35,142 bases of DNA from a virus (Duplodnaviria > Caudoviricetes), in IMG/VR virus record IMGVR_UViG_3300005512_000139, positions 1 through 35,142 of that record, one strand, 5' to 3'. The position numbers and the translations under genes were made by a program. A model generated the notes under the pieces. It was not told where the DNA came from and did not search any database. It saw only the letters and a list, made by a program, of their open reading frames with translations. Positions 19,466-33,504 of this stretch are shown one piece after another. The number at the start of each line of letters is the position of its first letter. Positions within the stretch are counted from its first letter, which is position 1.

Positions 19466-19506
19466 ATTCTAACATAAACGGGGCAAAGTGTCAATCACCG
19501 TGCCCC
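19466..19506 (-). promoter_or_regulatory. Sigma70-type early promoter with a stem-loop around the -35
   Basis: TTGACA (19489-19494)-17 nt-TAGAAT (19466-19471), with a GGGGCA...TGCCCC inverted repeat flanking the -35. Confidence 0.75.
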
Positions 19507-19515
19507 TGCTAAGTG

Positions 19516-19749
19516 TCACTGAAGGTGCTCTAATAATTCCTGATAGCACATCTGATAGATTTCCCCAGCGTGATACTCAGGGAGTTCAGTCCAGTGCATA
19601 TCAGCAGGAATACTATCGCAAATAATATCAGTTAGCACGAATTCGTCCAGTGTTACATTGTGACGGAATTCCACTGCTGCCATTAACTTAGCAACTGCCT
19701 CATTCATAACAGCGAAGAGGTGCTCAGTTTCGCGGGAGATGGTGATCAA
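19516..19749 (-). CDS. Hypothetical protein (77 aa)
   Basis: ORF with a TTG start 22 nt downstream of junction motif copy 1. Confidence 0.55.
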   Translation of the reverse strand: MITISRETEHLFAVMNEAVAKLMAAVEFRHNVTLDEFVLTDIICDSIPADMHWTELPEYHAGEIYQMCYQELLEHLQ

Positions 19750-19841
19750 GGGCGTTTCGAGTAGTGCTTACACTAGAGAGGACATTTGGGGGTAACTAAC
19801 AATATTACCCCCTCGGAGTTACTGTCAATCAGACTGCTGAA

Positions 19842-19985
19842 TCACGCACTGATTGATGCATAATACTCTGCACAGTCATTGATATTTTCTTGAATAATAT
19901 CCTCTTCGATAACATCCAGGATCTGAAGAATCTCAGAACCAGTGTTACCCTGACGGAGCAAACCGAGTGCCATTGAACGAGTCAT
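19842..19985 (-). CDS. Small hypothetical protein (47 aa)
   Basis: MTRSMALGLLRQGNTGSEILQILDVIEEDIIQENINDCAEYYASISA; sits between motif copies 2 and 1. Confidence 0.7.
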   Translation of the reverse strand: MTRSMALGLLRQGNTGSEILQILDVIEEDIIQENINDCAEYYASISA

Positions 19986-20070
19986 GTTTTGAAGTAGTGC
20001 TTACACCATAGAAGACATTTCAAGGTAACTAACAATAATACCACTGTGAGTTTCTGATACTCACTCTGAT

Positions 20071-20099
20071 ATTATACCAAAAAACTGTCTATCAGTCAA
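20071..20099 (-). promoter_or_regulatory. Sigma70-type promoter
   Basis: TTGACT-17 nt-TATAAT with an extended TG. Confidence 0.8.
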
Positions 20100-20132
20100 C
20101 GCAATCCTGTCAGAATTTCTATACGGGGGTTC

Positions 20133-20161
20133 TTGACATTTCTGCGAGAGTGTGATAGCCT
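20133..20161 (+). promoter_or_regulatory. Plus-strand sigma70-type promoter facing a noncoding region
   Basis: TTGACA-17 nt-TAGCCT with an extended TG; divergent from the 20071-20099 promoter. Confidence 0.55.
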
Positions 20162-20190
20162 GCTCGCCAAGATCACTACTCCCAGACACA

Positions 20191-20273
20191 TTTATCAGCA
20201 CCTTTCTATCATGCTTATCTGATACTTTATCAGCACCTTATCTGTACCAACTCTGAGGATTTATCAGCACCTT
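20191..20273. repeat. Three 14-bp direct repeats TTTATCAGCACCTT
   Basis: Copies at 20191-20204, 20226-20239 and 20260-20273 (period 35 and 34 bp). Confidence 0.9.
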
Positions 20274-20535
20274 TCTTCCTACTCTATGAGACATTTAGAG
20301 AGATACTTCTGAGTGCCTTCAGAGTACCTATACAGACACTTTACAGGGTATTCTCCACATCTTTTTCCACACATTGTTGAAAACGTATAAACAACGCATA
20401 TACATTAAAAAAACCTTTTTTAATTGATTTTTTACATAATCTTTATCTATATGAGGAAAAATAGAGCAAAAATCACTCGCAAACGCCTCGGAGAGTTACT
20501 ATAACATAAGGAGATATGTAGAGAAAAAAAGACAT

Positions 20536-20560
20536 AAAAAAGAGGGGATAAAACCCCTCT
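20536..20560 (-). terminator. Rho-independent terminator
   Basis: Minus-strand hairpin AGAGGGG-ttttat-CCCCTCT followed by a T run, 21 nt after the stop at 20582. Confidence 0.8.
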
Positions 20561-20581
20561 CTATGTGTATCTTACTGGTGA

Positions 20582-20932
20582 CTATGCAAAGGTGAAACCA
20601 TTGACAAAATCATAGGTATTGAAGACTTTACCAGTGACAGGAGATTGTGAAACAACCTTATCAACGAACCACTTAAAGTTCTTCTGATAGACTCTTTCTC
20701 CTTCAATACAGAAGTAATCACATAGAGCATTGATTCTGCTCTTGGTAGTAACACTCTGCCAACCACCATCATAGATCGTCATATCATTATCTGTCACCGT
20801 AGCAATCAAGTTACCGTGCAAATAAACAGAGGAAGTATGAGTTTCAGGATCGAAAACTACAGAGGTGTTAGCAAGACTCCAGTTCAGATTTTGCTGGATT
20901 GCTTGACACATTTGTTGTTCGATTTTACGCAT
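20582..20932 (-). CDS. Hypothetical phage protein (116 aa)
   Basis: MRKIEQQMCQAI...VYLHGNLIA...GGWQSVTTKSRINAL; typical small early phage protein. Confidence 0.8.
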   Translation of the reverse strand: MRKIEQQMCQAIQQNLNWSLANTSVVFDPETHTSSVYLHGNLIATVTDNDMTIYDGGWQSVTTKSRINALCDYFCIEGERVYQKNFKWFVDKVVSQSPVTGKVFNTYDFVNGFTFA

Positions 20933-20959
20933 GATTGTTGAATGAAATGAATGTGGGAG

Positions 20960-21019
20960 AGAGAAGCAATCTAGGAGAGAAGTCTGAAGAATCAGAGAAG
21001 CAATCTAGGAGAGAAGTCT
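20960..21019. repeat. 26-bp direct repeat x2 (AGAGAAGCAATCTAGGAGAGAAGTCT)
   Basis: Copies at 20960-20985 and 20994-21019. Confidence 0.9.
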
Positions 21020-21063
21020 CAACCCTTATACCATAGAAGACATTTGGAGGTAACTAACAATAA

Positions 21064-21270
21064 TTAACCAGAGATTTGTTGATAAAGTGTATTGAAAGCA
21101 TTGTAATCAGTATAATAAAATGCCTGTTCTTTTTTGTCCCAAAGTTGATAAGCAGCACACCCAATCTTAAAGTCGTAAACAACAAACTCATTGTTGTGAT
21201 TATCAACAACAACGGTGCCCAGTTGTTCTTTGACGAGAGTGTAATCTACCATGGTTGAAGTGTTGTTCAT
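21064..21270 (-). CDS. Hypothetical protein (68 aa)
   Basis: Fills exactly the space between motif copies 4 and 3. Confidence 0.7.
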   Translation of the reverse strand: MNNTSTMVDYTLVKEQLGTVVVDNHNNEFVVYDFKIGCAAYQLWDKKEQAFYYTDYNAFNTLYQQISG

Positions 21271-21304
21271 ACCATAGAGGACTTTTAGAGGTAACTAACA
21301 ATAA

Positions 21305-21472
21305 TTACCAGATTTCTGTGAAACGTTTATGTGTTGCTTTTGTCATTCTTCCCTCTGCTAACATGTTATCGCAGACATTAACAAAGACTTGAAACTTTTC
21401 CTCTCTTGTGAGAGTATTAGCACCGTCGCAATCTTTCATAATGCGGAGCATTTGTGCTTTGGAAGTGATCAT
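21305..21472 (-). CDS. Small hypothetical protein (55 aa)
   Basis: MITSKAQMLRIMKDCDGANTLTREEKFQVFVNVCDNMLAEGRMTKATHKRFTEIW; ATGA overlap with the upstream ORF. Confidence 0.7.
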   Translation of the reverse strand: MITSKAQMLRIMKDCDGANTLTREEKFQVFVNVCDNMLAEGRMTKATHKRFTEIW

Positions 21473-21606
21473 TTTTTGTTCAGAAAGTGTGCTTCAATGA
21501 TGTCAAGAATCTCACCACATTCGTCTGCGGCATCTTCATCAATCAGAACAGCATAATCCTCAACAGCATCAGCAATCAGTTCTAATTGTCGGTCGGTAAA
21601 TGTCAT
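21469..21606 (-). CDS. Small acidic hypothetical protein (45 aa)
   Basis: MTFTDRQLELIADAVEDYAVLIDEDAADECGEILDIIEAHFLNKK; ATGA overlaps on both sides. Confidence 0.7.
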   Translation of the reverse strand: MTFTDRQLELIADAVEDYAVLIDEDAADECGEILDIIEAHFLNKK

Positions 21607-21854
21607 CGGAGAACGTAGCAATAATCGATGGATTTGATACACCAACCCGTAGCATTTGTGATCTCTTCAACTAAATCATCAGCATCACATGCTTCCCAGG
21701 TTGTTGACATCGTTTCGTCAATAATAGACTGGAAATATCCTGGTTCCTTATCATAGGAAGCAGAATCATCAAAATCAAACTCAATGTCAGTGATACGATA
21801 GTGCATTTTTTTGATAGAAAGTTTACGGAGTTGACGATTAGTGTCAGCAAACAT
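21603..21854 (-). CDS. Hypothetical protein
   Basis: 83-aa ORF (ITDIEFDFDD...WEACDADDLVEEITNATGWCIKSIDY). The true start may be the internal Met. Confidence 0.7.
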   Translation of the reverse strand: MFADTNRQLRKLSIKKMHYRITDIEFDFDDSASYDKEPGYFQSIIDETMSTTWEACDADDLVEEITNATGWCIKSIDYCYVLR

Positions 21855-21879
21855 AATCAGAGATAAAGAACAGTTAAAA

Positions 21880-22026
21880 TCAGAAGAGTTCTAATTGTTG
21901 AAAGTTAAGATGATCGCAGCATGTATCATCATCCTGCAAATCAATCATGTCAGTGTCAACTTCACATGCAAGTTTGTCAAACAAGAAGTCAACAAATTCT
22001 TTGTTAGTCATTTTAGTTACGTTCAT
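21880..22026 (-). CDS. Small acidic hypothetical protein (48 aa)
   Basis: MNVTKMTNKEFVDFLFDKLACEVDTDMIDLQDDDTCCDHLNFQQLELF; its ATG abuts motif copy 5. Confidence 0.65.
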   Translation of the reverse strand: MNVTKMTNKEFVDFLFDKLACEVDTDMIDLQDDDTCCDHLNFQQLELF

Positions 22027-22050
22027 ACTATAGAGGACATTTGGAGGTAA

Positions 22051-22248
22051 CTAATAATCTACAGTTCGCATTTGTTCAACAATAGCACTCAAATCTCTTG
22101 CTACATCAGTCATCGCAGAACGTGAATATCCTGTCGCATAAGGATAACCTTGATCCTTATTTTCAGGTGCTTCATGACAAACATTGATCGCATTATTCAG
22201 TCGATCAATTATCATCACCAGTTGATCATCAATAGAAAAAATGTTCAT
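22051..22248 (-). CDS. Hypothetical protein (65 aa)
   Basis: ORF whose stop codon is the TAG inside motif copy 5. Confidence 0.7.
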   Translation of the reverse strand: MNIFSIDDQLVMIIDRLNNAINVCHEAPENKDQGYPYATGYSRSAMTDVARDLSAIVEQMRTVDY

Positions 22249-22266
22249 TATTAAAAAATGTGAATG

Positions 22267-22461
22267 TTAGTTAATGGGAAAGTTTTTACAGACAGCATCA
22301 CATAGTGTGCGGATGAGTTCATCACTATCAGTGGCAGTTAGTTGGAGACGGTCATCACCGCAGCAGTTTTGAACTGGATTATCAAAGTAAAAACCTTCAA
22401 TAATAGCATCAATGTCCTCAATTAGTTGTTCCCTTGCCGTGAGCATTTCAAGGCGATCCAT
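22267..22461 (-). CDS. Hypothetical protein (64 aa)
   Basis: Tightly packed minus-strand ORF. Confidence 0.7.
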   Translation of the reverse strand: MDRLEMLTAREQLIEDIDAIIEGFYFDNPVQNCCGDDRLQLTATDSDELIRTLCDAVCKNFPIN

Positions 22462-22463
22462 TA

Positions 22464-22697
22464 TTAAACATAGTGTAATGCAAGTTTGATGATTTGATCA
22501 TCTTTCACAATAGTGTTCGGACCAACTTTAGTCTCGAAACGATGATAGATTGTTTCGGGATCTTCACCCTCAAAACTAATAGCAGAAACGAGATCAGTTG
22601 TCATCTCTTTGACAGTGGAAATACCACGATAAGTTGAATCGAATTGTTCTTCAAGAATTTGAAGTGCTTGTTTAAAAGTGATTTGAGTGTTGTTCAT
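22464..22697 (-). CDS. Hypothetical protein (77 aa)
   Basis: ATG abuts motif copy 6. Confidence 0.7.
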   Translation of the reverse strand: MNNTQITFKQALQILEEQFDSTYRGISTVKEMTTDLVSAISFEGEDPETIYHRFETKVGPNTIVKDDQIIKLALHYV

Positions 22698-22721
22698 ACT
22701 ATAGAGGACGTTTGGAGGTTA

Positions 22722-23015
22722 CTAACAATCTACTTCAGAAAGTTCTTGTTGAAGTGCCATATATTGTTCTTCAGTTACTTCATCTACGCACTCCTGAATC
22801 ACAGTGTAGATGTAATCAATGTTGCCAACATCATTGAAGATTCTTTCAGCAAGTTCAGAACTTACCTCTTCTGGAAGATACTTTGGTTCATCATCTTCAT
22901 CACGAATCATACAATCCTCAGCAGTGTAGATCCATGCCGCACAAGGTGCATTTTCACCCTGAAGTTCGATCAGTTTGTTGACTCGTTCTTGCAGTTGTTT
23001 GAGTGTGTAGTTCAT
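22722..23015 (-). CDS. Hypothetical protein (97 aa)
   Basis: ORF whose stop is the TAG inside motif copy 6. Confidence 0.75.
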   Translation of the reverse strand: MNYTLKQLQERVNKLIELQGENAPCAAWIYTAEDCMIRDEDDEPKYLPEEVSSELAERIFNDVGNIDYIYTVIQECVDEVTEEQYMALQQELSEVDC

Positions 23016-23019
23016 GATT

Positions 23020-23181
23020 TCAGATGGATGGAGTAACAGAAACTTCCTTGATATTCAATCCACAAAGTTGATTGTAGACACGGTTGAGAATCAATTTGTC
23101 GGCAGTTTTTGCCTTTGATTTTTCATGCCAGATGGTCACACAACCATCATTAGTTTCAACCCGAACTCGATAGTTCTTCAT
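23020..23181 (-). CDS. Small hypothetical protein (53 aa)
   Basis: MKNYRVRVETNDGCVTIWHEKSKAKTADKLILNRVYNQLCGLNIKEVSVTPSI; fills the gap between its neighbours. Confidence 0.65.
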   Translation of the reverse strand: MKNYRVRVETNDGCVTIWHEKSKAKTADKLILNRVYNQLCGLNIKEVSVTPSI

Positions 23182-23186
23182 GTTAA

Positions 23187-23408
23187 TCAACCTCCGAAGT
23201 TATCATCCATAAATGCAGAATCTTGTCCACGATCATCACCGAACATTTCAGCGAAGAGATCAAGATTTTGGCGATCATACTGATCACGAACCATCCAAAT
23301 TTCTTGCTTAACCCATGCTAACTCTGCATTGAGTTTATCCATTTTAACCCGAAGATCATAGAGTTTTTGATTACGTTCGGTGATAGTCATTGATTGAGTG
23401 TTGTTCAT
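23187..23408 (-). CDS. Hypothetical coiled-coil protein (73 aa)
   Basis: ATG abuts motif copy 7; a second Met is at codon 7. Confidence 0.7.
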   Translation of the reverse strand: MNNTQSMTITERNQKLYDLRVKMDKLNAELAWVKQEIWMVRDQYDRQNLDLFAEMFGDDRGQDSAFMDDNFGG

Positions 23409-23452
23409 ACTATAGAGGACATTTGGAGGTAACTAACAATCTATTCAGTCAA

Positions 23453-23641
23453 TCAACGGATATAGAGATAACCTCCTTCGTTTCTCCACAATTTCCACAA
23501 TTCTTCAATGGATTTAACATTTTTGAATCCATTATGTTTATTTTGTTCTCTATAAAGTTTTTTTCCCATTTCCTCATACCATAGTTGAAAACTTTGACGT
23601 TCTGGATGATAAAGTGGAAGTGAAGTTACAGGATAAAACAT
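23453..23641 (-). CDS. Hypothetical protein (62 aa, start MFYPVTSL)
   Basis: The ATG at 23641 lies 2 nt after the upstream stop and is preferred over the track start at 23695. Confidence 0.6.
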   Translation of the reverse strand: MFYPVTSLPLYHPERQSFQLWYEEMGKKLYREQNKHNGFKNVKSIEELWKLWRNEGGYLYIR

Positions 23642-23643
23642 AA

Positions 23644-24012
23644 TCAACGGATATAGAGATAAGAACCTGCCCAATCTGCATGTTCCATCAACCACTCACG
23701 ATCACTCATGATACAAAGGTTAAAACGAATACCTTTTGCAGGTGCTTTGAATGATGCTGCTTTATAAACATCACCACTCTTCTTATCAACAAAGGCATGA
23801 ACACTGCGGGAACCAGCACCAGTCTCCATGATGATCTTGTGATACTTACGTCCCTCTTGAATGTAGAACTTGTAGTCGAGAGTGTGTCCTCTGCGGTTGA
23901 AATCGATCAGGAGAGCATCACACAGCATCAGGCAATACTTGCGGATGTTAAGTTGAATCGTGTTGCGTGCATCTTGAGTTGCAACATAATCAGCAAAAGA
24001 GGTTTTAGTCAT
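23644..24012 (-). CDS. Conserved hypothetical phage protein (122 aa)
   Basis: GRKYHKI...SRSVHAFVDKKSGDVYKAASFKAPAKGIRFN motif; ATGA-type overlap with the upstream ORF. Confidence 0.8.
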   Translation of the reverse strand: MTKTSFADYVATQDARNTIQLNIRKYCLMLCDALLIDFNRRGHTLDYKFYIQEGRKYHKIIMETGAGSRSVHAFVDKKSGDVYKAASFKAPAKGIRFNLCIMSDREWLMEHADWAGSYLYIR

Positions 24013-24194
24013 TTTGTGAGAGTAAAGATTGCGTTGAGTTTTGCTTGAATAGAGTTGAAGATTTCAATTTCGCCATCATCTTCATCAAGATGATCTTGAT
24101 ACTCACTCAGAGCATAATCGATGATTTGCCATTCAGAATCTGTAAACAGTTGTTTGTAGATTGAGGCGGAAAGTCTTTGAGAATCGTTGTTCAT
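24009..24194 (-). CDS. Hypothetical protein (61 aa)
   Basis: ATG abuts motif copy 8. Confidence 0.7.
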   Translation of the reverse strand: MNNDSQRLSASIYKQLFTDSEWQIIDYALSEYQDHLDEDDGEIEIFNSIQAKLNAIFTLTK

Positions 24195-24230
24195 ACTATA
24201 GAGGACGTTTGGAGGTTACTAACAATCTAC

Positions 24231-24965
24231 TCATGCAGTTTCGAGTTGAAGATATTTCACATTCTTCTTACGTTCTCCATTTTTCTTATACAAACCACCA
24301 GCAGGATATGCTAAGTTACCCCATGCAACTTGGTTCTTAAATTGATCATATGAATCAACACCAATGAGAAGTTGAGTTCGGGAATTGTTCGCAGTTTCTT
24401 TACCCATACGAATCAATTCAATAGATTCAAATACTCCGATAAAGATTTCATCCAGAAGTTTTGCATCACCAGTGAAAATATCAAAGACATTGATGTCTTC
24501 ATTCAAACCATACTTCACACCAATGAAGTCCATTTTCTGATCTTCTTTCTTGCTGGCATGAGTCGAACCAGTCCAAGAATTATCACCAGATGTTCCTTTG
24601 ATCTCCCAGATCTTAGAACTTACAGTAAGATCACCAGAAGAACTGCGATCTTTCTTGACATCAAATCCACCTTTTGCAAGTTGGCAAGTGATGACAGACT
24701 CAAGAATTCGTCCGAGGTATACAAAAACCTCATTACGATCTTCAGTGCCAAGTTGACGGAATGTAATGGGTTTGTCTTCAATTACATTATACTTTTTCTC
24801 ACGATTCAGATTGCGAAGAATCGGACAGAAACCGATCTCTACATTCAGTTCATAAATCAATTCACTGACAACTTTAGGATCAGAAAAATAGTCGCGGATG
24901 GATGATGCTTGAGTCATAATAGTTTCAGTCAATTCTTTGAATAAAGGATAGGTTTTAGTTTGCAT
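24231..24965 (-). CDS. Putative PD-(D/E)XK nuclease (restriction-endonuclease-like)
   Basis: GRILES...SSGDLTVSSKIWEIKGT fits an E...D-x(n)-EIK catalytic pattern. The start is probably the ATG at 24965 because a separate ORF occupies 24955-25122. Confidence 0.5.
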   Translation of the reverse strand: MQTKTYPLFKELTETIMTQASSIRDYFSDPKVVSELIYELNVEIGFCPILRNLNREKKYNVIEDKPITFRQLGTEDRNEVFVYLGRILESVITCQLAKGGFDVKKDRSSSGDLTVSSKIWEIKGTSGDNSWTGSTHASKKEDQKMDFIGVKYGLNEDINVFDIFTGDAKLLDEIFIGVFESIELIRMGKETANNSRTQLLIGVDSYDQFKNQVAWGNLAYPAGGLYKKNGERKKNVKYLQLETA

Positions 24966-25122
24966 TTTCGAGAATGAATTGTCTTGCTTGATATGCTTCA
25001 AATTGTGAATTGAATGTGGCAATCTTGGTATAATCTTCTCTCCAATAGATTGCCCACTTATGTGAACCCCACACACCCTTAACTAGAATGGGATTGTCAA
25101 TGCCAAGAGGATAGGATTTCAT
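24955..25122 (-). CDS. Small hypothetical protein (55 aa)
   Basis: MKSYPLGIDNPILVKGVWGSHKWAIYWREDYTKIATFNSQFEAYQARQFILENAN; ATG 17 nt after motif copy 9. Confidence 0.7.
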   Translation of the reverse strand: MKSYPLGIDNPILVKGVWGSHKWAIYWREDYTKIATFNSQFEAYQARQFILENAN

Positions 25123-25169
25123 CGGATTGATGTGCTTATACTATAGTGGACATTTGGAGGTAACTAACT

Positions 25170-26051
25170 TTAACGGAAACGAGATGTGGCAAAGTTAGCA
25201 TAACTGAAGAGTGAACGATCAACCAACTTCACTGCACCATAGTCGTCAGAATAGAAGACGAAACCTTCACCATCAATCTCAACATCGTCAAAGATGAAAG
25301 ATTTAGGAGAATCATGAATGATGAAACTACTCATCAGATCTTCCTTGATTTCTATCACCAACTGATAGAGATTGGCAAGTTGAGGAGATCCAAGGATTAC
25401 AGTCAACAAACTGTCATCGAGTTCGTGTCCTTCTGCAATGCAGGAGTTAATCTTTTGTTTGGCAATCTGCGCCTCTTTAACACTTAAGAAGGGAATTGCA
25501 CCTGAATTAACTTTAGGTGCCCTTACAGAGGCATATACCCTATCCACAGAGGGTTGTACCCACTTGACATAAGATGTATCGACAAAACAATCATTCAGCG
25601 GTTGACAATCTGCATTATGAAATTCATCATTTACATCCACGATTGTGTGAGGTGCAATGACAAGCAGTTGCTCAATCTCTTCAGGAAAAACATAAGAGAT
25701 CGTATTGGATTGCAGACAGTCAGTACCACCGAACCCAAGGAAATCGCCCCAGTAAATGTTCTCTGTGCGAGGCAGATAATTCAGACAATGAGTGAGAACT
25801 TCTGCCAGAGATTCTTGATGTCCGAAGTGACGATAGATGTCGTCAGTGTTGTAACAAAGGCGAATCTTTTTTTTGTTAAATGCTGCTTTGGTACAAACAA
25901 AAAACTTACCATTCTGAGGATTAGTGCCCCAAACAAGGGAAGTACCATCCATTTTCATGGAGATAGTACCAGTCCCGTACAAAGTATCAAGAACCGAAAG
26001 ATCACCAGTGAGGATCAAATCTTCGGGATGTTCGATGTGAGTGCTTGTCAT
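25170..26051 (-). CDS. Ligase-superfamily nucleotidyltransferase-like protein
   Basis: 293 aa with KMDG (motif I, KxDG), EGFV (motif IV-like), VKLV (motif V-like) and N-terminal HIEHPED. Confidence 0.55.
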   Translation of the reverse strand: MTSTHIEHPEDLILTGDLSVLDTLYGTGTISMKMDGTSLVWGTNPQNGKFFVCTKAAFNKKKIRLCYNTDDIYRHFGHQESLAEVLTHCLNYLPRTENIYWGDFLGFGGTDCLQSNTISYVFPEEIEQLLVIAPHTIVDVNDEFHNADCQPLNDCFVDTSYVKWVQPSVDRVYASVRAPKVNSGAIPFLSVKEAQIAKQKINSCIAEGHELDDSLLTVILGSPQLANLYQLVIEIKEDLMSSFIIHDSPKSFIFDDVEIDGEGFVFYSDDYGAVKLVDRSLFSYANFATSRFR

Positions 26052-26084
26052 ACTATAGAAGACATTTGGAGGTTACTAACTTTA

Positions 26085-27395
26085 TTAACGCCTAATTTCA
26101 CTGATCGCAGGTTGTCCCTGATTGAACACAGTATCAACAACTGCCTGCACTTTGCGAGCAGTGCCAATACCCACAGCATCATAAGTTGGGATGCAAACCA
26201 ATCCAAACGTCTTCTCAGATCCACCAAGTCTAATAACTCGTCCAATAGACTGGCTAATACCTATAAAGTCCATGTTACGCATGAAGATAACTGCCTCTAA
26301 ACCTGACACGTTAATACCTTCAGACAGAATACTGTGGTGGATAACTACAAACTTCTTGGTAGCATCTTTGCCCCAGGTGTTCAGAGTGTTGAAGAACTCT
26401 TCACGATTGACTTTCTTGCCATCAATGATTGCACCAGTCTTATCAGACAGAATACTGTGGTGGATAACTACAAACTTCTTGGTAGCATCTTTGCCCCAGG
26501 TGTTCAGAGTGTTGAAGAACTCTTCACGATTGACTTTCTTGCCATCAATGATTGCACCAGTCTTAGATGTAATCGTCATCCAAGAATATCCGCGCTGATA
26601 CAACTCAGAGCAGAAATTAGACTGAGAAAGTAAACCAACAATCTGCTTTGTAGTGCGAGCACAGATCAAAGTTTTGTTGATGTTGTTGTCATCAATCGTT
26701 TCCAGCAGATTGTCACAATCTTCTGCATAGACTACCTTACGTCCTTTGATCATAGGGAGTTGCTTGACTACAACTTTAGGAGGAAGAATGAACCCACCTT
26801 CAACCAACTCAGGAGCAGGAACATTTACAAGAACTTGTCCGTAAACACTCCAATTCATCCCTGGTTTTTTAGGTGTGAGGGAATGTTTAGGAGTTGCAGT
26901 ATAACAATATGCACGATCTGCGTTCTCTAGAAAGAACTCAGTGGAAGGAAAAAAGTGACGTTGCACACTGTTATGTGCTTCATCAAAGTAAATTGTATTC
27001 ACCTCAATGTCAGCATCCATAACACGATGCAGAGAATGATATGAGGTAAAGATGATAACATTCTCACCACATGCACGGGCAGTGTTAGCAAACAGGTGAA
27101 TCTTTTCTGCTTTGGTACTGCTATAGTGATGAGTTTCACCACTATGAACGTGCATAATGTGAGTGTTGGCGGTATCAATAACCTCCAAGAACTCAGAACA
27201 CAGTTGCTCTGCCAACAAAATGCGGGGAGCAACAACAACAGTGGTGGTGCCGTTAGTGATAGAATCATGACGGCGTTGAGTGTCAAGAATCATGGTAAGA
27301 GTCTTGCCACCACCAGTGGGCACAATGATCTGTCCTTTGTTGTAAGAAAGCATCCGATCAAGGATACGATCTTGATGTGGACGAAGGTTGATCAT
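26085..27395 (-). CDS. Superfamily 2 (DEAH) helicase
   Basis: Q motif LRPHQ, Walker A PTGGGKT, Walker B FDEAH, motif III TAT, SEGINV and QSIGRVIR. Contains a 41-aa internal duplication. Confidence 0.9.
   Translation of the reverse strand: MINLRPHQDRILDRMLSYNKGQIIVPTGGGKTLTMILDTQRRHDSITNGTTTVVVAPRILLAEQLCSEFLEVIDTANTHIMHVHSGETHHYSSTKAEKIHLFANTARACGENVIIFTSYHSLHRVMDADIEVNTIYFDEAHNSVQRHFFPSTEFFLENADRAYCYTATPKHSLTPKKPGMNWSVYGQVLVNVPAPELVEGGFILPPKVVVKQLPMIKGRKVVYAEDCDNLLETIDDNNINKTLICARTTKQIVGLLSQSNFCSELYQRGYSWMTITSKTGAIIDGKKVNREEFFNTLNTWGKDATKKFVVIHHSILSDKTGAIIDGKKVNREEFFNTLNTWGKDATKKFVVIHHSILSEGINVSGLEAVIFMRNMDFIGISQSIGRVIRLGGSEKTFGLVCIPTYDAVGIGTARKVQAVVDTVFNQGQPAISEIRR
26320..26565. repeat. 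Exact 123-bp tandem duplication inside the helicase
   Basis: 26320-26442 is identical to 26443-26565. Confidence 0.95.
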
Positions 27396-27441
27396 TTATC
27401 GTATGTCTGTGTAACTGTGGATCTTTGGAGGTAACTAACTT

Positions 27442-27798
27442 TTATTCGTAACGATTGGTAAGAGTTTTGTTCTTCCAAACGTACTCATTGCCACCTAAAC
27501 AATCATCACCAAGTTCTTCAATCATGATGTTATCGGGGAACATACCAAAGTATTCATCTTTCTGCTCATATCGCGTCACTGTGGAAGAACGACATGCACG
27601 AACATCAATCCAAACAGTATCACTCACATCAGCAAACTTTTGACTGATATAGTTCTCAATATCACCATATTCATTGATGTGATGTCTATCAATCCAGATT
27701 AAATCTTTATCACCATCTTCATATCTTTCCTCCCTATCTTCATCTGCCCAACATTCAATCTGGCAAAGTTCGCCTTTTTCAGTGTCGTAAGTAAACAT
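27442..27798 (-). CDS. Acidic hypothetical protein (118 aa)
   Basis: ORF ending 2 nt before motif copy 11. Confidence 0.7.
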   Translation of the reverse strand: MFTYDTEKGELCQIECWADEDREERYEDGDKDLIWIDRHHINEYGDIENYISQKFADVSDTVWIDVRACRSSTVTRYEQKDEYFGMFPDNIMIEELGDDCLGGNEYVWKNKTLTNRYE

Positions 27799-27800
27799 AA

Positions 27801-28100
27801 TCAGGAGTAAAGTGCTAGTTCAAGTGGATTTAATTTGAGGGGCATTGCTGTATATGGACGAGTGTCCGTAATGTTGATAGGTTCTCCTACCTTATTTGCG
27901 TTGATGGGGGCATGGTAAGTGTGCGAATTGCTTCTCGATGTTGTTTTAACGAATCCCCAGATTGTTCTAACGGGATCACTAGTGTAACTATAAAAAGCAT
28001 GGTGGCGCAACCATATAGCAGTAACATTCCGTTTGAATTGAGTAACTTCATAGGAATAACCTTTAGGTGCTTTGTGTGGAAAATCTACAGGAAGTTCCAT
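27801..28100 (-). CDS. Conserved hypothetical phage protein (start MELPVDFPH)
   Basis: The ATG at 28100 overlaps the upstream stop (TGATG); contains TIWGFVK and TRPYTAMP. Confidence 0.75.
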   Translation of the reverse strand: MELPVDFPHKAPKGYSYEVTQFKRNVTAIWLRHHAFYSYTSDPVRTIWGFVKTTSRSNSHTYHAPINANKVGEPINITDTRPYTAMPLKLNPLELALYS

Positions 28101-28309
28101 CAAGGTTGTGCAGGTTGTGGAGCAGGTTTTTTGGCAGCGGTATTGAAATGAACCATGCCATTTTCGTACCAATATGTCACAAATGCACGACGAAGCATTA
28201 GCAGTTCATCATATCGTGACTGTTGATCTTTAGTGAATAGAAAGTCTTGATCTCTCCAAGTTTTTTTCAGTTCTTGAAGTTCGCGGAGTACCAAAGAAGA
28301 ATTGTTCAT
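28100..28309 (-). CDS. Hypothetical protein (69 aa)
   Basis: ATG 15 nt after motif copy 12. Confidence 0.75.
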   Translation of the reverse strand: MNNSSLVLRELQELKKTWRDQDFLFTKDQQSRYDELLMLRRAFVTYWYENGMVHFNTAAKKPAPQPAQP

Positions 28310-28348
28310 GATGTGATTGATTACAATAACGGTGAATTTTAAAGGTAA

Positions 28349-28531
28349 CTAACTTTTACTACGTCCTTTTCTGTCATTCTTTTGTAATTGATAACCCTCA
28401 CGAATTGCATGGAGGATGATGTTATCATAAGAATGTGAACGCAATGGTATATTCCGATGCAGAAGATAGTCCTCACAATCTTCTGCTAGCAGTTCTTTCT
28501 CTTCATGGGAAAGATGTTCTAAGTCAATCAT
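28349..28531 (-). CDS. Hypothetical protein (60 aa)
   Basis: ATGA overlap upstream; stop is the TAG inside motif copy 12. Confidence 0.7.
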   Translation of the reverse strand: MIDLEHLSHEEKELLAEDCEDYLLHRNIPLRSHSYDNIILHAIREGYQLQKNDRKGRSKS

Positions 28532-28974
28532 ACTGCTAGTGCTCCATCAGGGATTTCAATAAACTCAGGATCTTTACGATGATCGAATGAGTGCATATCT
28601 ACACATTTCCATTCGTCATTTACAGTCCAAATATAAGCATACTCCTCATTGTTGTCTTTGTCAAGATACTTAGAGATACTATCATCCAAACGAGGAGGAC
28701 AATCCTCACCACGCTGAGAGTAATACTGAGGAGCATATTTTGCGGTTTTTTTAATCTCTTTCACATAAGGAGCAGTTTCTTTACCAGTCCAGCACTCATT
28801 ACTCCAGCAGGATGACATGTCACCACCATCAATCAGTTCGGAAACTTTTTCCTTCGTATTGTAGTGTGTCTTGAGAATCCTACCCAACCACTGAGGATAA
28901 CCATCCCAGTGATGATAAACAGAAAGAACAGAATTGTCACTGAGTTGAATACCAATGCGTGAACGTGTTGCCAT
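28528..28974 (-). CDS. Conserved hypothetical phage protein (148 aa)
   Basis: MATRSRIGI...SVYHHWDGYPQWLGRILKTHY...LIDGGDMS...EEYAY, a recurrent phage family; ATG 16 nt after motif copy 13. Confidence 0.8.
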   Translation of the reverse strand: MATRSRIGIQLSDNSVLSVYHHWDGYPQWLGRILKTHYNTKEKVSELIDGGDMSSCWSNECWTGKETAPYVKEIKKTAKYAPQYYSQRGEDCPPRLDDSISKYLDKDNNEEYAYIWTVNDEWKCVDMHSFDHRKDPEFIEIPDGALAV

Positions 28975-29023
28975 GATGAAATGCGATTGTACTGATGTGG
29001 ATCTTTAGAGGTTACTAACTTTA

Positions 29024-29161
29024 TCAGTAATCAATGTTGCCGTTCAAATATTCTTCGATGCTGAACTTTTGCTCATCTTCAATCAAATCTGCCAGATCTT
29101 TTTCAACGTAATCAAATTCAATAAGTTCTTCGATTTGTTGTTCAGTCAAGTAAGAATCCAT
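29024..29161 (-). CDS. Small acidic hypothetical protein (45 aa)
   Basis: MDSYLTEQQIEELIEFDYVEKDLADLIEDEQKFSIEEYLNGNIDY; sole ORF between motif copies 14 and 13. Confidence 0.7.
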   Translation of the reverse strand: MDSYLTEQQIEELIEFDYVEKDLADLIEDEQKFSIEEYLNGNIDY

Positions 29162-29209
29162 GATGAAGTTGCGTACAATGCTGTGGACTTTTAGAGGTTA
29201 CTAACAATA

Positions 29210-29848
29210 TCAGGTACTCATGCGACGATGAACTCTACCCATGATCTTAGTTCTACCTTTTGCATCGGGGTTTTGTCCTGTCTCTTTCTTATATTTGTCA
29301 GTTTCTTGTTTCTTCATGATGCCACGAAGTTCAGTTTCACCTTTTCTGGCGATCTTCATTCTCTCTTGTCTAGTATAACCAGATGCTTTTGCTGGTTTGT
29401 AGTTTGGATTAACTTCTTTCTTCTTCTTTATAGCAAGAAGTTCAGTTGCTTTCTCATCAGCATCCTTAGAAGAAATGGTAGTTTTCTTTACTTCACCACC
29501 AGACTTTTTCGCTGCTGCTCTTGCTTGTGCTGCTTTTTTTCTTTCTGCTTTTACCTTATCAGCATATGATTGTTTAACTTCAGCAGAACCACGTTCCTTG
29601 GTTGGTTGTTGCTCAATTTCAGATCTTGCTTTGGTGGCACCAACATCTTTTCTAGTTTTATATTCACCGACTGGTGCAGTTTTACCACCACCGACTGCTT
29701 TAACCCTAGGTTTTACACCAGGGCGGCGTCTACTAGCGGTGTCACGTTTAGGTTCTTTACGTCCACCTTCACCAGTTTGTTTGATCTGAGATCTACCCTG
29801 AATTTCAGGATCATAAACTTCAGACATAAATTGCTGAAAAGTTTTCAT
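29210..29848 (-). CDS. Lys/Arg-rich protein, candidate internal head protein
   Basis: Very basic 212 aa. The N-terminus MKTFQQFMSE resembles the T4 internal-protein capsid targeting sequence, and a late-promoter-like box lies upstream. Confidence 0.65.
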   Translation of the reverse strand: MKTFQQFMSEVYDPEIQGRSQIKQTGEGGRKEPKRDTASRRRPGVKPRVKAVGGGKTAPVGEYKTRKDVGATKARSEIEQQPTKERGSAEVKQSYADKVKAERKKAAQARAAAKKSGGEVKKTTISSKDADEKATELLAIKKKKEVNPNYKPAKASGYTRQERMKIARKGETELRGIMKKQETDKYKKETGQNPDAKGRTKIMGRVHRRMST

Positions 29849-29854
29849 AAGAAA

Positions 29855-29887
29855 AGAGACACTAAACCATTAGTATTTAGTGTCTCT
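29855..29887 (-). terminator. Hairpin or terminator with an embedded late-promoter-like box (CTAAATA)
   Basis: 12-bp perfect stem AGAGACACTAAA/TTTAGTGTCTCT followed by TTTCTT and then the ATG; CTAAATA at 29874-29880. Confidence 0.65.
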
Positions 29888-29897
29888 GTAATTTTAT

Positions 29898-30068
29898 TCA
29901 CCAAAAATCAGGAGTGCTGAGATCTTCCACATATGAAACCACACTTTCAGCACCTTGAATATCAAGGACTTTTTCCCAATCAATATTGTGAGGATTGAAA
30001 TCTTCCATCACGTCAAGTTCAAGAGTGACGCGAAACTTTTGCTTTTGAAAATATGCGGTGGATGGCAT
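29898..30068 (-). CDS. Small hypothetical protein (56 aa)
   Basis: MPSTAYFQKQKFRVTLELDVMEDFNPHNIDWEKVLDIQGAESVVSYVEDLSTPDFW, with an AGGAG Shine-Dalgarno and its own promoter. Confidence 0.75.
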   Translation of the reverse strand: MPSTAYFQKQKFRVTLELDVMEDFNPHNIDWEKVLDIQGAESVVSYVEDLSTPDFW

Positions 30069-30098
30069 GAAGAACACTCCTGAATCGATTACTTTGTA

Positions 30099-30141
30099 AT
30101 GATAATTGACTTGAACCCAGAAGTCAAGGGAGAGTGGACAC
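30099..30141 (-). promoter_or_regulatory. Early sigma70-type promoter with stem-loop and upstream GTGTCCAC box
   Basis: TTGACT-17 nt-TATCAT, a TTGACTT...AAGTCAA inverted repeat, and GTGTCCAC at 30134-30141. Confidence 0.75.
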
Positions 30142-30184
30142 TAGTTGAACCTGCCCAATCATTATATTTATGTTTGTGTTTGAT

Positions 30185-30403
30185 TCACGACTTTCTGTTT
30201 TTTACATATTCAAGTTCATCCCATTGAAAGTTTTGGCACACCAATAGGATATGATTCTTCTTGTGACATGTACCTTTGTCGCAAGAAACATCTTTCACAC
30301 CTAACTCAATGCTGATAGAATCTTCACACTTAAAGTACACCCAACCCTCATGGTTTTTCCATCGCACATAATCATCAACTTCAGGAACGTACTGGTTCAT
30401 CAT
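30185..30403 (-). CDS. Hypothetical protein (start MMNQYVPEVDDYV)
   Basis: Internal ATG preferred over the track start; contains EGWVYFKC. Confidence 0.7.
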   Translation of the reverse strand: MMNQYVPEVDDYVRWKNHEGWVYFKCEDSISIELGVKDVSCDKGTCHKKNHILLVCQNFQWDELEYVKNRKS

Positions 30404-30605
30404 CGACGGAGATTGATTCGTAATCTGGATACATTGTAGTGACGATGTATTGCGCAAGTGCTTGTGTGGTTGCCACTACATAAACCTCCACGGTGTAGGT
30501 ACAAAAATCACCAGGAGTATCTTGCATAGAAAGTTCTACCTCAACTCTCCACACATTTCCTTTCTTGAGATGTTGATCCCAAGAGATTGTCATGTCAGGA
30601 TTCAT
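30381..30605 (-). CDS. Hypothetical protein (74 aa)
   Basis: Overlap-packed minus-strand ORF. Confidence 0.7.
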   Translation of the reverse strand: MNPDMTISWDQHLKKGNVWRVEVELSMQDTPGDFCTYTVEVYVVATTQALAQYIVTTMYPDYESISVDDEPVRS

Positions 30606-30906
30606 GATGTGCTTTCAGATCTGGGTTTGGTTGTGATTTAGTCAGATCCCTACGGGATTGATTCTTAATAACAATGAACGCATCTTTGTTATACTTACGC
30701 ACACCAAATGGTGTTGCCCATTTCTTATTATACTCTTCACCTTGATGAATACCTGACACAGCAGTTCCACCAATTTCTACATCTACTTCATCACCATATT
30801 CCCATCCAAGTGTTTCTAAAGCAATAGCAAGTTGCCCTAGCATTTTACCAGGATACATCGTAGTTTCATCCATTACATATTCTTCAGGTTCAAGATTGCC
30901 ATTCAT
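30595..30906 (-). CDS. Hypothetical protein (103 aa)
   Basis: GAGGAG Shine-Dalgarno; ATGA overlap with the upstream ORF. Confidence 0.75.
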   Translation of the reverse strand: MNGNLEPEEYVMDETTMYPGKMLGQLAIALETLGWEYGDEVDVEIGGTAVSGIHQGEEYNKKWATPFGVRKYNKDAFIVIKNQSRRDLTKSQPNPDLKAHHES

Positions 30907-31145
30907 GTTGTAAACTCCTCAACAATTTCAGACTCAAGATCTTCTTCTGCTAGCGCATAAGTTCGGGCATTTTGAATGTTGTAACGAAGTTGTGGATAAT
31001 GTTGCACATTATATTCTTGATCTTTCTGAACAATCAGATCAAAACACTCATTTTCATCTTCAGCAATTACATTCCAGATGCCACCATATTCAGATTGAGG
31101 AAATGGAATGAAATGTTCAACAATATACAGAAACTTTTGTGCCAT
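30903..31145 (-). CDS. Conserved hypothetical phage protein (start MAQKFLYIV)
   Basis: PFPQSEYGGIWNVIA motif; ATG at 31145 lies downstream of a promoter. Confidence 0.75.
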   Translation of the reverse strand: MAQKFLYIVEHFIPFPQSEYGGIWNVIAEDENECFDLIVQKDQEYNVQHYPQLRYNIQNARTYALAEEDLESEIVEEFTT

Positions 31146-31168
31146 CGGTGTGTATAAATTACTCCTCA

Positions 31169-31197
31169 AGTGTAATCGATTGAGTGTTAATTGTCAA
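31169..31197 (-). promoter_or_regulatory. Sigma70-type promoter
   Basis: TTGACA-17 nt-TACACT. Confidence 0.7.
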
Positions 31198-32018
31198 GCG
31201 TTGAAAGCGTCAGTCAATGCATTTGAACGGCGTTTCAATCTCCTCTGGCACACATCATAATATGTTGCATCAATTTCAAATCCAATGTATTGACGATTTG
31301 TATCAACACAACATACAGCAGTTGTACCTGATCCCATAAATGGATCAAGCACAGTATCTTTTTCATCACTCCATGTGAGGATATGATCTTTTGCTAATGC
31401 TTCGGGAAAAATAGCAGGATGCTCAAATGCTTCAGCATCCTTTGATGAATAGTTTTTTCCAGTATTATACTTCCAAATATTATTTCTGGGACTAAATTCT
31501 GGAATTGGTTTAATATTACGTTCTACAAGTGAACCATCTTTTTTACGAATTGTTCCTTTACCAAAGTGTGTATAACCTGCCCATCGGTTGGGTTTATCGC
31601 AGAGAAGATGTGCAGTCTTTGGTTTAGTTTTTTTCGAGAACACAAACATATACTCAAATACTTGTGAGTATCTATTACCTGTTCTCTTTGCGGGAAAAGG
31701 ACTACCATTCTTCTCATAGATCATGGTGTCATGTAATAAGAAACCAAGATCCATAAAGTGAACGACTTGACGGAAACTAGAACCAGTTTCACTTCCTTTT
31801 ACGGTAGCATCTCCAATCACCCACACAACAACTCCACCAATCTTCATCACTCGATAAAGTTCAGCAGCAACATTTTTGAATGTATCAAAGTTCCATGATG
31901 AACTATCATTGTATGAACGAAGATTATCATATGGTGGAGAAGTAACACAAAGATCGATCGAATTACTTTCTAGTTTACTCATTCCACTGATACAGTTTTC
32001 GTGGAAAACGTGGTTCAT
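31194..32018 (-). CDS. DNA methyltransferase, beta class (N4-cytosine/N6-adenine)
   Basis: Motif IV TSPPY near the N-terminus, HPAIFP, and motif I VLDPFMGSGTT near the C-terminus. Confidence 0.92.
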   Translation of the reverse strand: MNHVFHENCISGMSKLESNSIDLCVTSPPYDNLRSYNDSSSWNFDTFKNVAAELYRVMKIGGVVVWVIGDATVKGSETGSSFRQVVHFMDLGFLLHDTMIYEKNGSPFPAKRTGNRYSQVFEYMFVFSKKTKPKTAHLLCDKPNRWAGYTHFGKGTIRKKDGSLVERNIKPIPEFSPRNNIWKYNTGKNYSSKDAEAFEHPAIFPEALAKDHILTWSDEKDTVLDPFMGSGTTAVCCVDTNRQYIGFEIDATYYDVCQRRLKRRSNALTDAFNA

Positions 32019-32245
32019 TCGATGCGTTCTTTGTTATGTAAATTATACACCACAGGTTGAATTTTGTCAATCCTTGCCATCATCCTGTTTTCACATTCAT
32101 AGATGGAGTTTGTAAGTTCTACATTCTCTGCTTCTAGTTTCTCAATTCTGTTTTGAAGTTCTAAAATTTTATTTGCAAAAGCAAATGAGTTATTGCTTAC
32201 TTCTGGTTCTTCTCTTCTTTTGAAGAGATTGGAGAACATTCCCAT
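32015..32245 (-). CDS. Hypothetical coiled-coil protein (76 aa)
   Basis: Heptad-like ILELQNRIEKLEAENVELTN; its stop overlaps the methyltransferase ATG. Confidence 0.65.
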   Translation of the reverse strand: MGMFSNLFKRREEPEVSNNSFAFANKILELQNRIEKLEAENVELTNSIYECENRMMARIDKIQPVVYNLHNKERIE

Positions 32246-32450
32246 AACGGTTTGATACTTGGTAATCCTTTGGTTTTAATTTATACCGATCAATATATTT
32301 CTGTAAGTGTTCTTCACATTCAAAATGACAAACAGTGAGTGCAATACCTCTTATATTATGATGATCTTTATTCACCTCCAATCTCCACGGAAATGATTTA
32401 TATGGAAAATTAATATTGTATTCTGGATTTAAGATGGAGGATCTGATCAT
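32190..32450 (-). CDS. Hypothetical protein (86 aa)
   Basis: FPYKSFPWRLE...CHFECEEHLQKYIDRYKL; ATGA overlap with the upstream ORF. Confidence 0.7.
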   Translation of the reverse strand: MIRSSILNPEYNINFPYKSFPWRLEVNKDHHNIRGIALTVCHFECEEHLQKYIDRYKLKPKDYQVSNRYGNVLQSLQKKRRTRSKQ

Positions 32451-32599
32451 TTTTTAAGATTCATTTGTCTTTTCAATTCCCACTTAACCGTGTTTAGATG
32501 TTTGTGTAAGTAAATTTTCCATTCATTGTCTTTAGTTAATTCCATGATATTTTCTGTTTGCCATAATGCAAACAAAAGTTTTTCATCATCAGTAATCAT
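32447..32599 (-). CDS. Small hypothetical protein (50 aa)
   Basis: MITDDEKLLFALWQTENIMELTKDNEWKIYLHKHLNTVKWELKRQMNLKK; ATGA overlaps on both sides. Confidence 0.7.
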   Translation of the reverse strand: MITDDEKLLFALWQTENIMELTKDNEWKIYLHKHLNTVKWELKRQMNLKK

Positions 32600-32799
32600 T
32601 TGAATCCACCTTTATCAAGGACTTCAATATGTGAAAGGAAAATTTTTCTATTCCACCAAATTTCTTGTGCTGACAGATAATTATCAACCACAATACTTTC
32701 GCCCATTTTACTTACAACTCTATAATGGTGCCGATCATAATCTTTGTAGCATGATTGCTCAAAGTATTGTGGATCATTTTTTTCAATTAATGCAGTCAC
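32596..32799 (-). CDS. Hypothetical protein (67 aa)
   Basis: GTG start overlapping the upstream stop; contains YDRHHY and LSHIEVLD. Confidence 0.7.
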   Translation of the reverse strand: MTALIEKNDPQYFEQSCYKDYDRHHYRVVSKMGESIVVDNYLSAQEIWWNRKIFLSHIEVLDKGGFK

Positions 32800-32954
32800 G
32801 ATGTCAGTCTGAGATAATAATCTTCTAGTTTTTGTTGGAGTTTTTTATGATTAACAGATGGTGTGTTAATTTGTTCACCTTGAGCAATGGTGTAAGAAGA
32901 GGTGCAATTCAACACCTCTTGAAGATACTTAACTTCTTCTTTAGTAAAATTCAT
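32796..32954 (-). CDS. Small hypothetical protein (52 aa)
   Basis: MNFTKEEVKYLQEVLNCTSSYTIAQGEQINTPSVNHKKLQQKLEDYYLRLTS; 4-nt overlaps on both sides. Confidence 0.65.
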   Translation of the reverse strand: MNFTKEEVKYLQEVLNCTSSYTIAQGEQINTPSVNHKKLQQKLEDYYLRLTS

Positions 32955-33148
32955 TGCCAGCGTTTTGTTTTAAGATAGTTGAGAACATCAGCACGAACAT
33001 CCATGAGTTCATGATAACATTTTTGATTGTGAGCACATTGACGAAGTGCAGGATCAGGTTTAATTACAGATTCGATGAAGATGTCTAAACCTCGATTCCA
33101 TTTTTCTTGTTTAGTTTCTCCATCATTAATAGTGTACTGATCCTTCAT
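32951..33148 (-). CDS. Hypothetical protein (65 aa)
   Basis: KWNRGLDIFIESVIKPDPALRQCAHNQKCYHELM. Confidence 0.75.
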   Translation of the reverse strand: MKDQYTINDGETKQEKWNRGLDIFIESVIKPDPALRQCAHNQKCYHELMDVRADVLNYLKTKRWQ

Positions 33149-33168
33149 TAAACCCCCCTAGGTTTTGA

Positions 33169-33372
33169 CTATTTAATCAGTTTCCAGTTAGGATCATTTT
33201 CCTTCTCCATCCAGAAGAAGTACCTACCTGAAATAGAAGAGAGAAACATACGTCGATCATCTTCCTTTTCTATTTTACATGAATGCAAGAGATCCATTTG
33301 ATTAGCGAAACGATTCTTTGCTTTTGATGTCTTTGGTTGGACTGTAACGAATTTAGATTTAGTAACTGACAT
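33169..33372 (-). CDS. Hypothetical protein (67 aa)
   Basis: ATG 15 nt after motif copy 15; contains KAKNRFANQM. Confidence 0.75.
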   Translation of the reverse strand: MSVTKSKFVTVQPKTSKAKNRFANQMDLLHSCKIEKEDDRRMFLSSISGRYFFWMEKENDPNWKLIK

Positions 33373-33457
33373 GAATAAATGGATTACATCATAAAGGATC
33401 TTTAGAGGTTACTAATAAAAATATAAAAGCTATATTTTTATCAACCCCAACAAAGGT

Positions 33458-33486
33458 ATTCTACATGGGTTTACTTACCTTGTCAA
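33458..33486 (-). promoter_or_regulatory. Sigma70-type promoter
   Basis: TTGACA-17 nt-TAGAAT. Confidence 0.8.
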
Positions 33487-33504
33487 GAGTGACATCATAG
33501 GATA

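Follow-up and report, generated by a model that had tools for sequence, protein, structure and literature searches.

The DNA analysed here, the window, is the entire 35-kb record of its genome (35,142 nt; IMG/VR record IMGVR_UViG_3300005512_000139, positions 1 to 35,142). Its database matches identify it as a T4-like cyanophage with S-SM2 as a relative: matches were found in 440 phage records, the best in S-SM2, SynMITS9220M01 (M01) and Bellamy. Next to gp25/gp6/gp7, where S-SM2, M01 and Bellamy also have their small-gene region, lies an array of small genes on the minus strand with copies of a short repeated element. The array also contains a gene for a 212-aa basic protein. The repeat is most likely a phage-private transcription-start signal, and the 212-aa protein is its candidate reader. 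We found no description of either one in the literature, among mostly freely readable papers.

Copies, layout and distribution of the element

Searching the window with TTAGTWACCNNNAAANNTC returned 15 matches and no more, every one on the minus strand (the outermost at 19781-19799 and 33397-33415); 100 shuffled sequences gave none. The 15 co-oriented copies listed in the initial annotation were thus confirmed. A tolerance of two mismatches added no copy (shuffle mean 0.83). A position weight matrix (PWM) scan of the whole window at a score of 10 or more returned the same 15 copies only, with none at positions 1 to 19,700, and the structural module is free of the element as first stated. Conservation extends 3' of the consensus first noted, into a TATAGT-like hexamer, a purine and T. 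The full layout is a 9-bp genome-private box, NNN-AAA, a 7-bp core, the TATAGT-like hexamer and a purine. The copies and the associated features are as follows.

19771-19799, minus strand: element copy 15 (box TTAGTTACC, AAA, core, hexamer, predicted +1 purine)
20004-20032, minus strand: element copy 14, ATG 19 nt past the hexamer
20539-20562, minus strand: terminator-like hairpin closing the main array
21029-21057, minus strand: element copy 13
21270-21298, minus strand: element copy 12, ATG abuts the hexamer (predicted leaderless)
22026-22054, minus strand: element copy 11, upstream stop is the box TAG, ATG abuts the hexamer
22697-22725, minus strand: element copy 10, upstream stop is the box TAG, ATG abuts the hexamer
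23408-23436, minus strand: element copy 9, ATG abuts the hexamer
24194-24222, minus strand: element copy 8, ATG abuts the hexamer
25139-25167, minus strand: element copy 7, site of a clean 474-bp element-to-element indel relative to L061
26051-26079, minus strand: element copy 6, start codon of the DUF6267 gene abuts the hexamer
27410-27438, minus strand: element copy 5, precedes the superfamily 2 (SF2) helicase gene
28324-28352, minus strand: element copy 4, upstream stop is the box TAG
28990-29018, minus strand: element copy 3
29176-29204, minus strand: element copy 2, 5 nt past the stop of the candidate reader gene
29210-29848, minus strand: candidate reader gene (212 aa), at the head of the dense array
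29291-29380, minus strand: predicted recognition segments of the reader (codons 157-186), in which residues 160/164/168 and 179/181/183 track box bases
29855-29887, minus strand: terminator-like hairpin (z -5.0) with a CTAAATA late-promoter-like motif, just upstream of the candidate reader gene
33387-33415, minus strand: element copy 1, an outlier upstream of the dense array

The copies had been placed mostly at gene boundaries. This holds for 12 of the 15, which contain the upstream stop or lie within 16 nt of one: a stop codon is found 2 to 16 nt ahead of the box at nine copies, and the TAG of the box is itself the stop at three (22051, 22722 and 28349). It does not hold for the copies at 19799, 20032 and 33415, where the gap to the upstream stop is 42, 549 and 89 nt. 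Downstream, an ATG abuts the hexamer in six copies and follows 15 to 19 nt later in six; in the remaining three the open reading frame (ORF) start used lies 22, 63 or 97 nt away.

The element family was also found in the relatives S-SM2, M01, P-TIM68, S-B05 and S-B43. At the equivalent place, 12 copies with box GGGGGGTCG are present in S-SM2 and 12 with box TTACTCACC in M01. Cultured P-TIM68 has 12 copies with the window's own box, and S-B05 and S-B43 have 14 and 8 copies, both with box TTACTCACC. Scanning viral contigs with the 3' core gave at least 369 unique contexts, mostly in at least 12 box types, among them GGGGGGTCG, TTAGTTACC, TTACTCACC and ACTGAAGCC. The box type is uniform inside each contig, and in each of 40 merged contigs all copies lie on one strand. 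Between genomes the box ranges from TTAGTWACC to GGGGGGWCG; the 5' box is not conserved family-wide. No private-box array was found in the early region examined of Syn9, Bellamy, P-SSM2, S-SRM01, S-SCSM2R and DSL-LC02/03, which instead carry a two-box AAGTGNCAC-type element. The TTAGTWACC element was not found in Syn9 or Bellamy.

The 7-bp core differs between lineages without following the box, and a separate reader may exist for it. In P-TIM68 (L586, 14085-22986) the core after AAA is TTGACAT or TTGATTT, a look-alike of the sigma70 -35, with no consistent -10 at 17 nt. The S-B05 and S-B43 deposits (L585, L589, L614-L616) look rearranged, with the array split and interleaved with tail genes, possibly by misassembly.

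A candidate reader and its residue-base code

Candidate readers were sought by comparing S-SM2, M01, P-TIM68, S-B05 and partial relatives with Bellamy and Syn9. Two array genes are common to all element-positive genomes of this comparison, an 88-aa gene (30903-31169) and the gene at 29210-29848. The 88-aa gene was rejected: it is also present in the array-less P-SSM2, S-SRM01, S-SCSM2R and DSL-LC02/03, and its best column predicts the box at just 0.69. The other gene encodes a basic protein (57 K+R, 27 D+E) with no homologue found in Syn9 or Bellamy; its counterparts in S-SM2 and P-TIM68 are SSM2_065 (ADO97407) and AIR93418. Among 50,697 phage records, 10 (8 phages) contain the protein, and all six of these phages that were examined carry elements; seven cultured cyanophages lacking the protein have no array in the early region examined. 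The protein has no match in Pfam, PHROG or PDB, and homology to MotA or AsiA was not found. In Atlas it falls into hypothetical clusters only, and a profile search over 1.84 billion proteins returned 218 relatives, none of them named.

The motif TAAATA lies within 70 nt upstream of 96 of 135 homologues, where 0.03 is expected per upstream window, and 111 of 140 homologues have a capsid-targeting-like N-terminus by the T4 pattern. Some homologues (P0079, P0112 and similar) carry 50 to 130 extra low-complexity residues after the N-terminal signal, and some reach 360 to 430 aa.

The strongest new result is that residues of this candidate reader track the private box base by base. Loci were gathered by protein (window and S-SM2 proteins as queries) and not by motif, and the box was called blind to the protein; the calling requires C at box base 8 by construction. 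Among 140 unique homologues, 106 are in loci with at least three copies of one blind-called box; of the remaining 34, just three extended at least 4 kb downstream. The code set consists of the 105 loci with residue 164 aligned. R160 occurs with a pyrimidine at base 9 in 78/78 loci and non-R160 with G9 in 27/27 (total 105/105). At residue 164, M occurs with T5 (41/41), Q with A5 (11/11), K with G5 (23/23) and D with C6 (15/15). At residue 168, G or N occurs with C4 (14/14) and R or K with G4 (88/91). Further along the protein, Q181 occurs with TTA (56/56) and L179 with G3 (27/27). Nineteen held-out loci were examined, and residue 164 predicted the box in all 16 that were callable; two of the other three had no repeated box and one was a new class. 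On the same loci the best box-predicting column reaches 0.61 to 0.76 in six neighbouring genes, compared with 0.93 to 1.0 for the 212-aa protein.

In a tree built on residues 1-145, the traits of residue and base each switch 5 to 10 times. Independent pairs on the starred branches agree in 4/4, 6/6 (p 0.03), about 5/5, 5/5, 3.7/5 and 3.4/4 cases and never go in the opposite direction. The 212-aa protein is the predicted reader because the box changes in step with a few of its amino acids. The pairings Asp-C, Gln-A, Lys/Arg-G and Met-T follow the common preferences for contacts, and together with the i, i+4, i+8 spacing they fit a recognition helix.

The match between protein and box could instead arise by hitch-hiking, with the 3' end of the gene travelling with the adjacent element, the array homogenised by gene conversion, and the real reader encoded elsewhere or the host polymerase acting alone. 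In 41 of 103 loci the stop of the gene and the first element are indeed no more than 40 nt apart, and two further observations given below (the broad co-variation of residues 176-212 and the absence of the gene from S-B43) point the same way. We regard this explanation as very improbable. The co-variation is strongest at individual non-synonymous positions of one helix face and is absent at synonymous sites: the mutual information (AMI) at synonymous sites of codons 151-175 is at most 0.15, compared with 0.87 for residue 164. The code is also modular, as TTAGTATCG occurs with A160+M164 and ATGGGGGCC with R160. The P-TIM68 protein, 52% identical and encoded 1.5 kb from the first element, keeps M164/R160/R168/Q181 and has the same box.

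Promoter-like geometry and proposed mode of action

Geometry was examined on 333 unique elements selected by box and AAA alone. A pyrimidine-purine step (Y|R) stands at the hexamer end in 330 of them. An ATG that abuts the hexamer is in frame with the gene downstream in 20 of 23 gene families (p 1.6e-7), compared with 23 of 67 for other triplets at that place. Positions -7 to 5 hold no open-frame ATGs and position 6, the first purine, holds 82; 11 lie 6 nt past the first purine and the bulk at positions 20 to 27 (14 to 21 nt on). In the window, S-SM2 and M01 the DUF6267 gene begins right at the end of the hexamer, and in P-TIM68 and S-B05 it has a 15-18 nt leader. The A(-11) of sigma70 is present in just 244 of the 333 elements and missing in 89, including nearly all P-TIM68 copies. 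A sigma70 scan of the window called no element copy as a promoter of its own (-35/-10, ~17-nt spacer); canonical sigma70 promoters exist separately in the window. A non-sigma70 start site is suggested by the invariant Y|R step and by the in-frame ATGs that abut the hexamer. The array probably consists of early genes, judging by its position.

We consider it probable, on the sequence comparisons above, that the repeat is the phage-private start signal of the small-gene array and that the 212-aa protein reads its 9-bp box. RNA would start at the purine after the hexamer, giving leaderless AUG transcripts or leaders of 14 to 21 nt. The predicted start puts the box at -28 to -20, the AAA at -16 to -14 and the hexamer at -6 to -1, a non-sigma70 geometry. 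The protein would be made late, packed into the head via its N-terminal targeting signal and injected with the DNA. One helix face (160/164/168) would read box bases 9, 5-6 and 4, and a second segment (179/181/183) bases 1-3. The bound reader would then recruit or redirect the host RNA polymerase. The repeats may also offer homology for occasional ordinary recombination and are not predicted to form a dedicated crossover system.

Several observations weigh against this interpretation. TA..T is found at the hexamer in 219 of 333 elements, a second Y|R step occurs 6 nt later in 214 of 333 with 11 ATGs there, and an ATG abutting a -10-like hexamer is found in classical elements too. S-B43 has eight elements and no homologue of the protein by protein or profile search; its record is rearranged relative to S-B05 and the gene-bearing block is not at the syntenic place, so that a true gene loss is possible, with misassembly as the alternative. 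The capsid-targeting pattern is missing from 29 of 140 homologues. Within the code, L164 occurs with G-boxes in two loci and R168 with C4 in three, and the box classes are sampled unevenly since the loci were gathered with window and S-SM2 queries. Only one of the six pair tests has p<0.05 because the pairs number 4 to 6. Residues 176-212 co-vary broadly with the box (median AMI 0.52, a value that has no synonymous control), which could come from linkage or domain swaps.

Some of these points suit another reading, in which the protein does read the box and the element is a host sigma70 promoter with TATAGT as the -10 and a start about 7 nt later. The protein would be a MotA-like factor at -30, or would be made late as a repressor or DNA organiser and silence or protect the array instead of starting it. 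With that start the box would lie at -34 to -26, like a MotA box, and at the Y|R step 6 nt past the hexamer A occurs in 77%. The late-promoter-like motif of the reader gene and the retention of elements in S-B43 also agree with it. This reading is unlikely, though it deserves to be kept in mind. It does not account for the in-frame ATG at position 6 in 20 of 23 families with no ATG just upstream, nor for the copies lacking A(-11), and the strict conservation of the box would suit a needed activator better than a dispensable repressor.

Action at the RNA level is quite improbable. Read-through transcripts would be cut or bound at the element (cut at Y|R), new 5' ends would be made for translation, and the protein would be an RNA-binding or processing specificity factor. 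The fixed Y|R step and the start-codon spacing suit a cleavage site equally well, and the protein is highly basic with Arg-rich helical segments. However, six of the seven copies folded have no hairpin, the terminator-like hairpin at 29855-29887 would block read-through into the array, and a base-specific i, i+4, i+8 code would be typical of duplex DNA reading.

Gene shuffling, known systems and biological meaning

The initial annotation proposed that the element defines a cassette or regulon system, as a crossover site, a regulatory site or both. The regulatory half is supported by the promoter geometry and the co-varying candidate reader; the crossover half is weak. Breakpoints were mapped in 22 pairs of 17 close relatives (86-95% identity). 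After in-place divergence and a 123-bp duplication of the window were dropped, 109 events gave 92 independent breakpoint clusters, 25 in elements, 45 at other gene junctions and 22 elsewhere. The share of 25/92 is far above the 5.9% of sequence that the elements occupy. Among gene junctions, however, 110 of 279 (39%) are elements, and 25 of the 70 breakpoints at junctions (36%) fall there (p=0.77); no excess over other gene junctions was found. Gene-level breakage is 64% compared with 51%, not significant on unique junctions (p=0.26), and this test is noisy because the gene calls are heuristic. Clean element-to-element indels among close relatives are few (474, 492 and 679 bp) and are expected from ordinary recombination between repeats, by the mechanism given for promoter early stem-loop (PeSL) cassettes in the available part of PMC4122927. 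Alignment ends scatter over about -16 to +43 of the element. Logan contigs of four DNA runs held fragmentary relatives only, with no usable joints.

A dedicated crossover site with its own recombinase is therefore not supported, and the idea of an undescribed site-specific cassette system was rejected on the breakpoint tests. Co-oriented copies at gene junctions and the clean indels speak for it; against it stand the lack of excess over other junctions and a sequence locked to start codons. No recombinase was found among the 52 ORFs of the window (a 35-kb contig), as first noted, or in the S-SM2 annotation viewed, which also showed no RNA polymerase or extra sigma factor. We hold this reading to be largely refuted. 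A hairpin or PeSL structure was likewise rejected by folding: among seven copies a stable hairpin was seen only at 19799 (z -3.1), the other six giving z -0.6 to +0.9. No dyad or folded site with a fixed crossover core of the attC or dif type was found. On both structures the initial annotation was right. Compared with integron attC and dif sites, the element has no hairpin, a non-conserved 5' box and scattered alignment ends.

An early-gene regulatory element of the T4-like cyanophages Syn9 and P-TIM40 was reportedly described by Doron et al. in 2016, and we take the two-box AAGTGNCAC-type element of Syn9, Bellamy and P-SSM2 to be that motif. Both elements are repeated before small genes in the same region (tail-fibre block to gp25), and the 3' core AAAGTGTCCC of the S-SM2/M01 element resembles the second box AAGTGNCAC. 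In the Syn9-type element, which is common across genera, two dyad boxes precede a sigma70-like -10 by about 30 nt. This two-dyad-box layout is seen in Syn9, Bellamy and P-SSM2 and not in the window's 15 copies, which differ in having an asymmetric genome-private 9-bp box, a core, a non-canonical hexamer and a co-varying phage protein. Besides its private-box array the window has, at 34050-34094 (minus strand), a single element of the classical Syn9 type (AAGTGGCACA, hairpin, TATAAT), and S-SM2 and S-B05 likewise retain one or two.

T4-type phages are said to carry PeSL cassettes and their PmSL counterparts (Arbiol, 2010). The PeSL is described, in the accessible part of the source, as an AT-rich stretch, a stem-loop, a sigma70 -35/-10 (or Mot box) and a Shine-Dalgarno sequence (Comeau, 2014; PMC4122927), where Mot-box PmSLs are described too. 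As far as that part goes, these are also repeated promoter elements bounding small ORFs in hyperplastic regions, with occasional element-to-element indels. The element described here differs: it carries a private box, lacks the stem-loop and has no TTGACA at -35, a leader is often missing, and breakpoints are no more frequent at it than at other junctions.

Middle promoters of T4 have a MotA box and use MotA/AsiA. The resemblance would be that a phage protein reads a short upstream box and redirects the host RNA polymerase; the candidate differs in having no Pfam or PHROG match to MotA, in looking late-made and virion-targeted, and in a specificity that varies between genomes. T4 Alt and the N4 virion RNA polymerase are virion-injected transcription proteins. 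The candidate is predicted to be similar in being head-packed, delivered with the DNA and active as infection begins. Alt acts by modifying RNA polymerase and does not read DNA, the N4 enzyme is a large polymerase using hairpin promoters, and the T4 internal proteins serve in defence; none is a small sequence-specific reader with a variable code, as is predicted here. The T4 internal proteins have a common capsid targeting sequence and IPI* is injected, according to the portion available of PMC3012670.

Other features were noted in the region. A 55-aa ORF (24955-25122, minus strand) with a DNA match in G002 begins 17 nt past element 25167 and is probably the true first gene of its unit, rather than the GTG start at 25076. 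A direct duplication of about 24 bp (gagaagcaatctaggagagaagtct, 20945-21020) lies in the long leader after element 21057. The 123-bp in-frame tandem duplication (26320-26565) is inside the SF2 helicase ORF (26085-27395); it is absent from L042 (99.8-100% identical), L498 and L061 and is an assembly artefact or a strain variant. The stretch 20035-20570 is gene-free and has sigma70-like promoters on the minus strand (20099-20071) and, by eye, on the plus strand (~20134-20162), as well as three copies of TTTATCAGCACC at 20190-20280. A small RNA is possible there; the plus-strand fold is not significant (z -0.8), and an Rfam scan of 18800-35142 gave no match, in this stretch or elsewhere. An N6/N4 DNA methyltransferase gene (31194-32018, minus strand) has a canonical TTGACA-17-TATAAT promoter at 32070-32042. 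The gene at 33505-33963 (minus strand) is a homologue of SSM2_042, whose annotation PF06114 we take to be an ImmA/IrrE-like domain. It is present in S-SM2, M01, G002 and the window and not in Bellamy or Syn9; P-SSM2 carries the same gene cluster.

T4-like cyanophages are described, in the parts available of PMC3152331 and PMC5780444, as lacking Alt, Mod, MotA and AsiA of T4. For the switching-on of their first genes there is now, in one clade, a concrete candidate pair of signal and reader, with residue-level predictions and the cultured phages S-SM2, P-TIM68, SynMITS9220M01 and S-B05. More tentatively, and as a possibility that we would stop short of calling probable, a small virion-injected DNA-binding protein of a new family may, as infection begins, reprogram the host RNA polymerase in this marine clade to private non-sigma70 promoters; protein and box would co-evolve in a modular way, one residue to one base, and every lineage would have an orthogonal address unreadable to co-infecting phages and the host. 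The 12 or more natural box variants, with the matching protein code, would amount to a new family of DNA-recognition proteins from which orthogonal promoters for cyanobacteria could be drawn, and arrays that look integron-like would be recast as regulatory repeats rather than recombination machines.

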